Below, piece by piece: positions 6,187 to 62,300 of a stretch of 64,000 nucleotides of DNA (position 1 is its first letter; every line of letters starts with the position of its first letter). The notes beneath the pieces were generated by a model, which searched no databases, was not told the DNA's origin, and was given only the letters and a program-made list of their open reading frames with translations. A program made the translations under genes and the position numbers. Source of the stretch: Eledone cirrhosa (Eukaryota); assembly GCA_964016885.1 (NCBI GenBank), contig OZ024741.1, positions 69,936,001 through 70,000,000 on the forward strand. Direction: 5' to 3'.

Positions 6187-7137
6187 TTATATATATATAT
6201 ATATATATATATATGAAAAGAGTCAAGACCCCGACGGCTGAGCTGCAGCCGTTTCGATAGCTGCTCGGATCTAACGGCCGGAGCTCATCAGTCGGGTCCT
6301 TACTTTTTTCCTATTACTCACTCTACTACCGTAAGTATTGAGTACTCTGGTGCGTTATGGTCCACCTGGTCTGGTATCTTACCAAACCCTCTTTGTTTTA
6401 TATATATATATATATATATATGTTGGCTGCCAACTCGTTTTCGAGTACGGCCACTACTGTATATCCATGTAGGAGAACCCCTACCGATGCGCTGAACGAG
6501 TGTGACTTTTTAGTCCAGCCAGCGACTTGAAAACTCTGGTACAAACACTACACTTGTGACCATTATTGACACATAGTGCTGGGCCCATGGTACCATGTGA
6601 CGACAAGTGCAGGGAGATCTCCAGATATAAAGAAATGCCTGTGCCGTGAAGCTTTTATAGTGAGCAAAGGCACTGCACAAAGCCAGTCCCACTCTCTTAA
6701 CCAAGATATTTACCAAAAAGAAGAATAAGTCAACATCATTGGATACCATCAGGGTTGCAGGTGTTATATCAGAGCTTTCCTTCTCCTAGAATTCTGCCTT
6801 GACAAAGGCTAAGGGGTCATCTCTCCCGGTGATTTTGGATGGCCATTGACTCTTAAGAGCTCCTTTGCCCTTTGACAGGTTTTGTTTTTAGTCCTGCAGG
6901 ATGTCCAAAGTCACCCTCTTCACCAAGAAACCTTGGTGGGGTTGCCAGTTTAGTCGCCCACGACCCGACCATGTATATATATATGTATGTGTGTGCATGT
7001 ATATATTTCATACACTATATTTTTGTTAACGCATGCATCCACACCTGTAAGCGCAGACTAATGTAGGACAACGATTAGCCCACCTTTAATCCTTCCTGTC
7101 TCTCTTTTACCTTATTATTATTAGCCTATTGTTATCA

Positions 7138-7430
7138 GACCTGCCAACCCCTAAAAAGCCAAACGGGGAGTACCATAAAAATGTGCCCCAGAATGTGGCG
7201 AGATGAGGCAAAATAGGGAGATTTTACATAATTAATTGTTTCTACTTTAGGCACAAGGCCAGCAATTATCCCAGTGTATTACTGGTACTTTATTTTATCG
7301 ACCCCGTAAGGATGAAAGGGAGATTTTACATAATGAAAGCTATACCCATTTTCATAAGAAAAGATATCTCTCAACCACTCTAAAGTGGGTGTGAGATCTC
7401 CCCGTCCGACGAGGAGAGTTGACATGTCTG
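7138..7430. mobile_element. MITE interrupted by a SINE fragment with a 17-bp target-site duplication
   Basis: TIR-like CAGACCTGCCAAC / GTTGACATGTCTG; GGGAGATTTTACATAAT duplicated at ~7216 and ~7318 around the SINE. Confidence 0.6.
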
Positions 7431-9029
7431 TGTTATTATATATTATAATTACTATTATTATTATTATTATCACTATTATATATATATATGAGAATCCATT
7501 CTTAATCTTTTGAAATTATCCCCTCTTTCATACATCATTGCTAAAAATTACTGCTTTTTTTTTCTATTAATCTTCCCCGTCCATGAGGGAGATTTTCATA
7601 AATTGATCGTATATGACATCCAGTACACCGCTATCGATATTCTAGTATGTCTAGCGACGATGTAGAAATTCCATCGTTGGCTGGGGTGTACATAGGATAT
7701 AAAAGTTATCTAGCTACATACAGATGCTAAATCGATAAGAAAGCACAGAAAAGGCCGAAAGCAAATAATCTAAACATAAGTCAAATATCGACAGCAAAAA
7801 TAGTCTGGGAAATTTCTGAGTAATGTCACTGCAACCTTTCCTCTTGAATACAATAACTTTATTCAAAGAGGTTAAAGCAGATGTAAGACATGTTCAGCTT
7901 AAGGACTGCATGTTGTATTTGTACAGGGTGGACCATGACTTGCAATATATTTGTGAATAAAATACGTTGAACTGAAATTTCAATCTCTTTCTTAATATTC
8001 ACATACACATCTCTCTCTCCCGATTACTTAAATACATGTGTGTCCCCCCCCCCTCTATCTGTATGTTAACTGTCTTATTTTTTCCCTTCTGTTTAATTTT
8101 CTCTCTCTCCTTTTTTCCTTCACCAATAAGTTTATCCCGGGTTCAATCGGGTGTAACCACAGTAAGGTACTCAATACATAGCAGAGTATAAATATTTAAT
8201 ATATAATATGTATATATATATATATATATATATATATATATATATATATATATATATAAGGGCGGTGGAAGCATTTCTGAATTGGTGGCAAATTTGGACA
8301 TAAATTGGGGGTGGGGTGGCAAATTCCCACCCCTTTCCACCGCCACTGTGTATGTATAATATAAAAAAATTATGCTATGTGCTCTTTCCTAAGAGGTTAA
8401 TAAATCGAGCATTTTCGTATTTGGTAAGAAACTGGTATAATACCCAATTTATTCGTCTCCTATATATATATATATATATATATATATATATATATATATA
8501 TATATATATATACACACACATACACATTCATTTATTATGGCTATTGGTGAGCTTTGTTACTCTAAAGTTTCACCTGCTCACTCACAGGATCACCTGTCGT
8601 GTCTGGTGAGTACACAGTTGAGACTCCAGAGTAACAAGGCTTAGCCATAATAAATGAATATTTAAACTCTACTTCGCTATTGAGTTTTCATTCTTACGTC
8701 CGTCAATAATTCACGCACTCTGAGGTCTTGAATAATCGTCCCCACCCCCCGTTTATTAATTTGTCAGAATTTTTCCACCCCCGCAACCACTTATTAAATT
8801 GTGCTAATCTATCTCCGGCGAAATGTTATTGTAAGTGATTCATATTGAAACAACAGCTGGAGAATCTAATAATAATTTTATTTTACATTAAAAAACATTA
8901 TATATGACAAAAGAAGAACATTACAAGAAATCCCATATTTAAGAACGTACACTATACAATTACTGATTTCCTAAGCCCCTCCCCCCATTGTTGCCACCCC
9001 TCCTATTATTTGGGACCCGAGAGTGCCAC

Positions 9030-59300: not shown

Positions 59301-59578
59301 CTCTCTCTCTCTCTCTCTCTCTCTCTCTCTCTCTCTCTCTCTCTCTCTCTATATATATATATATATATATATATATATATATATATATATATATATATAT
59401 ATATATATATTCCCTCTGATAGTTTGTAAAATCTTTACATAGATCTATATGATATACATACCAACACACACATATATATCCTAGAAACGATCGTAAAATG
59501 ATTAATTTTTTAATATAAGGAACTGTTTCTTTGTTTTTATTCATTGTTTTTATTAATTTATATATATATATATATATA

Positions 59579-60688
59579 TATAGTTATAGGAATAACCAAA
59601 GAGTGCTCAGAAATACATTGTTTTATTAGGTAACAGTGTTTCATCCATACACCATGGCAGGAATCATCAGACCCTATAAATATGAGTATATCAGTAGTTG
59701 CATGCTCCATCGAGCTGCGTCACCAGAACAAGGTTAAAGGACCAGCAGGAGGGTCCCGAGGCCAGCGCTATATGGAAAAAGACAGAATACATGATGCACA
59801 AAATGTCATAAAATGTCTTAAAATATTTAAAAATTAAAAATTACATCAAAAAATTATCACTTAAATGGTGCAATAGATGATAAAGAGGTTGGGAGAGGGT
59901 AGCAAGGGATGAGTGAGGGTATTACTCAGCATGATCAGAAACAATAAGAAAATATTTAAAAAAAAAAAATAATAATAATAAAAAAGTACAAAAATACAGG
60001 GATAAGAAAAGAGATAAATATAAAAATACAAAACAATAAAGGAACAAAAGTCCCGGAAACCCCAAAGAAATATAAGACAAAGCAAAGCATAGATGCATCT
60101 CTTTTCTTATCCCTGTATTTTTGTACTTTTTTATTATTATTTTTATTTTTTTATTTTTTTATTTTTTTATTTTTTTATTTTTTTATTTTTTTATTTTTTT
60201 ATTTTCTTATTTTCTTATTGTTTCTGATCATGCTGAGTAATACCCTCACGCATCCCTTGCTACCCTCTCCCAACCTCTTTATCATCTATTGCACCATTTA
60301 AGTGATACATTTTTGGTGTAATTTTAAATTTTTTAATTTTAAAGACATTTTATGACATTATGTGCATCATGTATTCTGCCTTTTTCCATATAGCGCTGGC
60401 CTCGGGACCCCCTGTTCGTCCTTTAACCTTGTTCTGGTGACGCAGCGCGATGGAGCATGCAACTACTGATATACTCATGTTTATAGGCTCTGATGATTCC
60501 TGCCATGGTGTATGGATGAAACACTGTTAGCTAATAAAACAATGTATTTCTAAGCACTCTTTGGTTATTCCTATAACTATAACGGCTCTGTAGCATACTA
60601 GTTATCCTACTTTGAGGTAAAACCACACTGTCATACCAAGGGCAATATATCTGCATGTCTGAGCATATTGATATATTTGTCAACGAAA
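59579..60688. mobile_element. Long palindromic HHR element, family H
   Basis: Arms ~59579-60015 and ~60097-60580; tail 60581-60688; TA flanks. Confidence 0.88.
60481..60537 (+). ncRNA. Hammerhead ribozyme (family H), mirror copy at 59623-59679 (-)
   Basis: GGCU-CUGAUGA-UUCC..GGAU-GAAA-C(ACU)G-UU^AGCU; the mirror copy reads GGGU...ACCU (compensatory pair). Confidence 0.8.
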
Positions 60689-62300
60689 TATATATATATA
60701 TATATATATATATATATATATATATATATATATATATATATATATATATATATATATATATATATATATATATATATATGTGTGTGTGTGTATATATATA
60801 ATGTAAGTCCCGGGTTCAGTCGGAGGTAACCACAGTAACTAAGGTACTTAATACATTAGTAAAGTGTAAACATCATGTTTAATATAGAACTGTTTATTCA
60901 AAAGAAATCATCAGGAAAGAAAAGCTCTGATGTTTTCTTTAGAATGAAACAGTTCTAGTCCTGTAGAAGCCATTTCTATATTAAACATTATAAATATATA
61001 TATATATAGTGAACAACACAATATATAACTACTCCATAATATCCTGAAACCTTGGGTAATGGAGTAGTTATATATTGTGTTGTTAACTATCTAATTAAAT
61101 AGCTCTGTTCTACACATAGAGCACTCTTTTTACCCTTGCTTTTTCTTCGGAATTACCTAACACACACACCGACACTCACACACATATATACGTATATATA
61201 TATATATATATATATATATATATATATGTAAATTCGTCATTGCTACTGATCTACAATATGTATAAACATATTGTAGACAATGATTTGTGGAAATGTTTGT
61301 AGATAGATCACCACCCCCGTAAAAATAAAAGATTAAAAAAAACACAAACAAAGAGGGCAAAACAAAAACGTAAATAAACAATCGCTAAAAGACTGGCAAA
61401 ATGAAGTCGTTCAAAAACTATGTGTTGTTTTTGACGGGAATAAACTGTTGGAATCATTAGTATTTAATTGACGAAAGTCGAGAAATGTTAGTAACACCTC
61501 CCTCGAGTATAGAGGCTCATTAAGTATAAAGCAATTGAGAGTAAAAGACGCCAGTCGATCATAGGGTTAACCAATAGCTGCTGGATGCTATCCTTACACA
61601 TTCCTTTTCCAGCTGAATGAACTGGAGCAACGTGAAAGGAAGCATCTTACTTGAGGACACAGTGTGTTGTTCCATCTGAGAATCGAACCTACGACCTTGC
61701 AATCGAGAGCACCACTCATTAACCACTAAGCCGCGCGTTTTTACCATTAGTAAAATAAAGGAGAAAAATACGTTAAGTATTCCAAAAAGAACCATAAGTA
61801 GAGGCCTTACTAGGCTGGTATGTTGGGGTGCAGACCACACCGTTTAGCATTATCAGCGATGGTGACACACAAATCCTTATTAAGGATTTTGTATTCTGTT
61901 ACAGGATGTGGCCCGTGGAGTAGGGGTGTTGATATTGCACTGGGTGACACCAACCCTAGTAACACCATTGATCATACCTGAAATATAATATAATATATAG
62001 AACATTTTCTATAAAGTTTAGAATTCTTTGGGATTTGTATAGTTTTCTTTGTTACGAGAGAACCATTCCGTTGGCGAGCCACCAGATGTCTTTTGGATTG
62101 AAAGAGCTGATCCGTGGCTGGTTGCGGTTGGGACGCATGTCGGGGCCTGGTAAATCCTAGTTGGGTCGCCTGGACAGGGATATATGATGTTTAAAGACCC
62201 GAAACACCAATCACCCCAGGTGAGATCAATGATGATGCGTCGCAGCTCAACTATGAGAATGTATCTTGCACCTATCAAAGATAAATTATTACTAACTTAC

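Follow-up and report, generated by a model that had tools for sequence, protein, structure and literature searches.

Eledone cirrhosa has a (TA)n-rich genome of 3.0 Gb. We analysed a 64-kb stretch of this genome (contig OZ024741.1, positions 69,936,001 to 70,000,000; hereafter the window), in which Penelope-like elements (PLE) are inserted as inverted arms, both outer ends of an insertion being element 3' ends. One outer end stops at a proximal, TA-like site, and the other carries a tail of 55-140 nt. The elements belong to a known kind; this one-tailed asymmetry is real and holds with unusual strictness. It probably results from twin priming, in which two fixed internal sites on one RNA each prime one cDNA and the two cDNAs are joined end to end.

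The one-tail rule

The asymmetry had been proposed from inspection of the window without database searches (the sequence-only reading). All 14 elements listed there have a proximal TA-like end and a tail of 55-140 nt, on the side claimed, and the one exception named, near 48938-49197, does carry two tails (at 48937-49195). These elements sort into ten families, for which A to J are working labels. The description of the family A ends stood only in part: the copy with a tail-less end at 25947 has its tip at 28584, but the copy ending at 40011 has at its other end a tail of family B, not of family A. The copies at 3005, 22283, 30503 and 25947/28584 cannot be regarded as palindromes because their halves do not overlap; each consists only of a tail fragment and an inverted tail-less arm. 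Outside the list, the element at 14580-14660 follows the rule, and that at 51930-52512 breaks it, both of its outer ends being tail-less. For the copy tailed at 2160, which runs beyond the window, the rule predicts a tail-less far end, and such an end is found at L061:8954.

Genome-wide counts were made for family D1 with three gapped patterns, which cover copies with short centres and exact markers. They found 2,776 palindromes, 2,726 (98.2%) of which are one-tailed, 32 two-tailed and 18 tail-less (33 matches at 18 places). If the two ends were independent, 1,388 one-tailed, 701 two-tailed and 687 tail-less palindromes would be expected. The ends are thus anti-correlated, each site being used once per insertion, and their positions are discrete; the sequence-only reading had anticipated both. 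In five of the first 10 two-marker loci one arm stops at +22 to +26, and a displaced tail is present in three of the 18 elements without a marker. A second sample was selected by the D tail motif (the first 90 of 8,913 matches, in positional order). It comprised 55 loci with an inverted tail-less partner, one with a tailed partner and 34 with no partner within the examined stretch, one of which has a tail-less partner 6.5 kb away. The rule is obeyed by 55 of the 56 resolved copies.

Eight other families were assessed by a family-library scan of the window and the collected loci, in which 151 of 163 joints are one-tailed (A 17/17, B 65/70, C 23/27, F 8/8, G 14/16, H 19/20, I 3/3 and J 2/2). Two of the four exceptions in C have the appearance of alignment artefacts. 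Further exceptions are long copies of family A with their ends at (-13,-13), (+161,0) and (0,-126) relative to the tip. Family E, with three joints, is outside the 163, one joint being an internal tandem junction, and some D counts were left out of the rule, their loci having been picked in part by tail status.

Some further features were seen at D loci. Tailed arms at L314, L318 and L324 are interrupted precisely at the proximal site by an inserted (TA)n tract or short duplication, and some tips adjoin (TCA)n instead of (TA)n (L385, L400 and L327). The same tail-less D fragment recurs with the same flanks within the first 3 Mb of contig C1 (L244, L248-L250, L256 and L264) and has therefore spread inside a larger repeat.

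Priming sites, arms and mechanism

The two outer ends correspond to two fixed points 55-140 bases apart. Tandem copies read beyond the tip at three loci in family A, two in D and one each in B, E and G, and the sequence beyond it in A, D and G is the N-terminal coding region of the open reading frame (ORF). Judging from these junctions, the tip is internal to the element and is not the RNA 3' end. The family A ORF begins about 20 nt ahead of the proximal site, and the tail of this family is therefore coding. At the tips the template and the (TA)n flank have 2-6 nt in common, and at the proximal sites 3-6 nt. The proximal site is TA-like, as had been claimed. However, annealing to an internal TA does not by itself fix the site, since the commonest D proximal end (+7) shares a single T (36 ends, vs 25 at the TATAT site). 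Two distinct priming modes had also been proposed; because the tip likewise overlaps 2-6 nt of TA, the proximal and distal sites look instead like one kind. A stem that opens with CTC or CAC and closes with GAG or GTG starts 2-13 nt 3' of 11 of the 15 sites, against a background of 16/204 and 528/7,510 TA positions (7-8%). It was first noted at the proximal sites and then found at the tips (3/5 strictly, and in D with CAC). We regard this putative stem as a lead, not a result.

In family D, 131 of 186 arms end at -51 to -60, at the boundary between CC and AGATTCC, 30 nt downstream of TATAAATA (TATA box). The non-genomic base preceding AGATTCC was G in 79, T in 11 and A in 10 of the first 100 listed of 2,128 matches (hand count), an excess of G with p ~1e-20 against one third. 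When 20 G cases were inspected, the bases upstream of the G differed, and seven cases adjoin a microsatellite flank. A common spliced exon was considered as the source of the G and is excluded by this variation among the 20 loci. Both arms carry the G in seven palindromes, and in five of these the two are 1 nt apart. The cap can template an extra C during reverse transcription. Most D arms therefore probably end at the capped RNA start, and we read the pattern as both cDNAs having copied the sense RNA as far as the capped end. The start site was placed within the pseudo-long terminal repeat (pLTR) for Penelope and Chlamys-3 in PMC8557442.

The two arms of an insertion are from one source, as judged from their alleles, which does not in itself prove a single RNA molecule. 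The mismatch between arms of 125 D palindromes is 3.5%, vs 7.4% for random pairs. The arms have the commoner diagnostic alleles in common; -39T of family D, for instance, occurs in both arms 41 times and in a single arm once, where independent pairing would give 14.6 and 53.8. Concordance is lower at two diagnostic sites close to the end of the arm (5 in both arms vs 7 and 9 in one). Minor alleles are shared between the arms of A, F and H above all shuffles, and none of 311 scanned head-to-head joints mixes families. Arm lengths, transcribed by hand for family D, are coupled as well: when the tailed arm extends beyond -62 its partner does too in 9/9 cases, compared with 2/46 otherwise (Fisher p 9e-9). 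The tail-less arm is longer by more than 15 nt in 11 of 55 pairs and shorter in 6. At one identical D centre the tail lies on the left 16 times and on the right 13 times. Arms consisting only of the tail occur in B (12/65), C (13/23) and D (7/120), a minority except in C, and overlapping arms can exceed 3 kb. Among 29 centres, 14 show homology of 0-3 nt and 15 have 1-9 extra or mismatched bases. Family D was also considered as a fixed palindromic master, an impression that arose from a query that had picked one centre; unselected copies vary in their centre.

These insertions probably arise by twin priming, in which two fixed internal sites of a single RNA are used and the resulting cDNAs are then end-joined. 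Each of the two strands cut in a (TA)n target would start reverse transcription on this RNA, at a site of its own. A protein dimer would hold the RNA, each subunit priming at a short UA tract that lies a few bases 5' of a small stem, and the trailing subunit would either displace the leading cDNA or stop early, resulting in overlapping or tail-only arms. Both cDNAs would often run off the capped 5' end, and their 3' ends would be joined head to head via microhomology of 0-3 nt or a few added bases. Under this proposal the one-tail rule would hold because one site cannot serve twice on one RNA molecule, and the 1-2% of exceptions would stem from tandem transcripts, in which each site is present twice. 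Twin priming would account for the strictness of the pairing, for the tail falling at random on either side, for the tail-only arms, and for the shared alleles and coupled lengths. Support is provided by PAc, a Poseidon element of the green anole, whose protein cuts and extends both strands in vitro from two internal reverse transcription start sites that bound the tail (PMC11167929). Neither of these sites prefers a strand, one has a stem-loop, and a dimer is predicted.

More tentatively, twin priming may be the normal route of PLE integration. The dimer would bind two tandem units near the start of its own ORF, each made up of a UA tract and a stem, and each subunit would align one cut (TA)n strand on a template of 1-6 nt, much as telomerase aligns its primer, both copying the same RNA. 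If so, the one-sided tail, the head-to-head inversion of pLTRs and the thousands of 200-nt hammerhead hairpins (through run-off at the cap) would be explained together.

Several observations weigh against twin priming or the evidence brought for it. Long overlapping arms would require strand displacement. No homology to the target is involved in priming by the anole element (PMC11167929), whereas most ends described here overlap 2-6 nt of TA. In six of the 20 inspected G cases the partner arm could supply the G. The arms of G and I, young families with few cases, are no more alike than random pairs, and one joint between a B tail and an A body, at 39437, escaped the scan but was spotted on visual inspection. 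Some of the allele sharing could be due to gene conversion between arms, and sequence alone does not distinguish one RNA from two RNAs of the same source. The stem was defined on the same sites at which it was counted and is not seen at either A site or at the proximal sites of C and I; RNAalifold recovered no covarying stem at the proximal site from 40 D and 35 B tails.

An alternative is dual priming. In this process, named together with twin priming and defined as a LINE-1 mechanism in PMC2837659, each strand would be copied from its own RNA of the same source locus, and an asymmetric complex would assign the proximal and distal sites. Arms overlapping over 3 kb would then need no strand displacement, the shared alleles would fit if the RNAs were bound in cis, and the single cross-family joint at 39437 would fit as well. 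We nevertheless consider it rather unlikely, since the 98% asymmetry would need a separate reason, cross-family joints number 0/311 in the scan, and the arm 5' ends are correlated even away from the start-site hot spot.

Less probable still is a hairpin intermediate, formed by fold-back of the cDNA or by self-priming of an antisense RNA as proposed in PMC3846280, of which the endonuclease would trim one arm at the base of the tail ("EN-mediated resolution", PMC8557442). A hairpin predicts near-symmetric centres and shared alleles, and the Drosophila Penelope endonuclease is reported to need the tail for recognition (PMC11167929). However, plain fold-back requires the tailed arm to be the longer one, contrary to the 11 of 55 pairs noted above. 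Tail-only arms and the extra or mismatched bases at 15 of 29 centres, with homology of 0-3 nt at the other 14, also speak against it. The cap-like G residues 1 nt apart on both arms in five cases are too tight for a primed loop, and a symmetric structure offers no reason to trim exactly one arm.

The sequence-only reading placed one priming event at the RNA 3' end and the other at an internal ATAT, an arrangement like that of LINE-1 twin priming. This model predicts the same anti-correlation, and priming at the tip could occur on transcripts of tailed solo copies that extend into the adjacent (TA)n. It is nevertheless very improbable: tandem copies in five families continue beyond the tip, which shows a TA microhomology of its own and, in short D copies, is about 135 nt away from the probable cap. 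Palindromes adjoining microsatellites are prone to artefacts, but an assembly artefact from fold-back chimeric reads, or an origin as miniature inverted repeats of DNA transposons, has a negligible chance of being correct, given that arms differ by about 3%, centres vary among copies, contigs of two public runs (possibly of the same sample) show the same kinds of joint, and the arms are 3' ends of reverse transcriptase (RT)-coding elements.

The elements of the window

The claimed PLE origin of the palindromes is borne out. Family A has a 736-aa frame with YVDD and VVY..YIG motifs, and family D an intact 713-aa ORF (L447) with YRDD and IVY..YIG; Pfam support is weak and below cut-off (RVT_1, E 9.5e-5; GIY-YIG, E 0.012). 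As in endonuclease-containing (EN+) PLE, a single ORF of A and D combines RT with a C-terminal GIY-YIG endonuclease, partial tandems form pLTRs together with an inverted 5'-truncated copy (L337, L338, L339 and window 20080-20932), and a tail extension that overlaps the ORF start is present at one end. The family A unit of L339 is 4,406 nt long, and its ORF has a long asparagine-rich N-terminal insert of the kind described for rotifer Penelope elements (PMC3846280).

The motifs suggest clade likenesses under the definitions of PMC8557442. Family D resembles the Hydra clade in its RWK-type motif (RWR), DKT (within SDKTK), CxCX5C linker (CNCLNKEAC), short single ORF and (TA)n target. The endonuclease of that clade lacks the CCHH motif; by eye, that of family D has two cysteines between IVY and YIG and no evident second histidine. 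Family A resembles Neptune- or Nematis-type PLE, two candidate clades that the motifs do not separate, in its CX4CxxC linker (CTNRKCIIC) and CCHH motif (CTEGTC, QH and EH), but it has DKS and not DKG.

A hammerhead-like core (CUGANGA..GAAA) with helix II is present in seven families. These cores sit in the arms, with the tail downstream, and thereby fix the sense strand of the arms. An Rfam search of B and D arms gave no hammerhead match, and the whole-window repeat search and Rfam scan were dominated by microsatellites. Target-site duplications are masked by the (TA)n flanks.

Family A is represented by an inverted insertion at 1-2160, with a minus-sense arm (1-625) running beyond the window and a plus-sense arm (624-2160) that contains the 3' half of the ORF and the tail (2106-2160). 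A 5'-truncated copy on the minus strand (25947-28584) has its tail-less end at 25947, an inverted 16-nt tail tip at 28569-28584 and an ORF (26471-28568) encoding RT and the C-terminal GIY-YIG. Family B insertions comprise a tail-less minus arm with a diverged tail fragment at 3006-3152 (matches 3007-3043 and 3078-3120), a tail-less minus arm with a full hammerhead core (6291-6252) and a tailed plus arm at 6214-6398, a tail-less minus arm with a distal tail fragment (+28 to +71) at 30503-30609, and the palindrome with tails on both ends at 48937-49195. At 39437-40011 a complete B tail (minus; 39437-39524) meets a diverged family A 3' body with a tail-less end, without a (TA)n spacer; this joint reflects either the nesting of one insertion in another or a rare product of two RNAs. 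Family C is found at 14580-14660 (tail fragment on the left, tail-less arm on the right), as a palindrome with a left tail at 29764-29961, and in the exceptional insertion at 51930-52512.

Family D occurs as a solo tail on the minus strand that stops at the proximal site (8132-8206), a diverged copy with the tail on the left and a tail-less hammerhead arm on the right (14825-14972), a tail-less minus arm with a non-overlapping tail fragment, +21 to +71 (22282-22375), and a solo tailed copy on the plus strand (43911-44036). A D1 palindrome (25711-25900) has its centre at the probable capped start and a 77-nt tail on the right, and a D2 copy (60803-60990) has the tail on the left and a tail-less hammerhead arm on the right. 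The family E copy at 20080-20932 is tail-less on the left and tailed on the right, its internal tandem unit reading through the tip. The remaining palindromes belong to families F (21655-22179, 142-nt tail on the left), G (29249-29648, 100-nt tail on the right), H (51450-51909, 86-nt tail on the left), I (59579-60690, 109-nt tail on the right) and J (61008-61160, tail on the right).

Palindromes outside these families lie at 8530-8655, 14446-14517, 28690-28767, 36417-36461, 52745-52811 and 59102-59558, and the sequences at 8532-8675 and 28664-28786 are related to each other. The window also contains 19 copies of a 60-nt unit with 99% identity, open in several frames (37009-38153), and a 545-nt repeat in four copies of 96-97% identity adjoining (TA)n (6426-6967, 22849-23391, 31920-32464 and 46782-47326). 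A very common family of 100-200 nt that resembles short interspersed elements is found at 4892-5595 and about 15 other places. Coding fragments adjoining (ATT)n on the minus strand at 49345-51456 presumably represent the C-terminus of a non-long terminal repeat retrotransposon, with a zinc knuckle and a restriction-like endonuclease.

Relation to known retroelements and significance

The one-sided tail and the two internal start sites of PLE are already known. A tail on one of the inverted pLTRs was described in PMC3846280, and EN+ PLE with an inverted pLTR and a one-sided tail in the legend of Fig. 2 in PMC8557442, where tails are ascribed to endonuclease resolution. Those published tails are 30-40 nt long and are called optional, whereas the tails described here are 55-140 nt long and occur once per insertion in 93-98% of cases. 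In LINE-1 twin priming (PMC2837659), as here, both target strands prime and the inverted halves are joined head to head. However, the first LINE-1 primer acts at the poly(A) 3' end and the second at a variable internal site, with an internal deletion. Neither a first priming at the RNA 3' end nor a variable second site with non-overlapping halves was found in the present elements, whose two sites are fixed and internal and whose arms as a rule overlap.

Three features are apparently new, as judged from our literature searches: the strict pairing per insertion, a tip that is internal and has homology to TA, and the cap-like G. The searches found no count of tail pairing per insertion, no twin priming for PLE and no cap-derived G. 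The available text of PMC11167929 contains no test of site pairing within one insertion and no account of the inverted arms, and that of bioRxiv 10.64898/2026.07.22.740005 and PMC13282606 contains nothing on tails or palindromes. PLE hammerheads are covered in PMC4209133. The origin of the PLE inverted repeats and tails is called open in PMC8557442, PMC3846280 and PMC11167929. The pairing, the shared alleles and the cap-like signature weigh against the published idea of antisense self-priming. The 98% pairing over 2,776 copies, together with the shared alleles and the cap-like signature on both arms, yields a sharp prediction that can be tested in the existing in vitro system.

Short PLE palindromes such as these might be catalogued wrongly as miniature DNA transposons. 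Telomerase and the PLE reverse transcriptases are sister groups, and alignment on a short template at a fixed site would for this reason be of wider interest.

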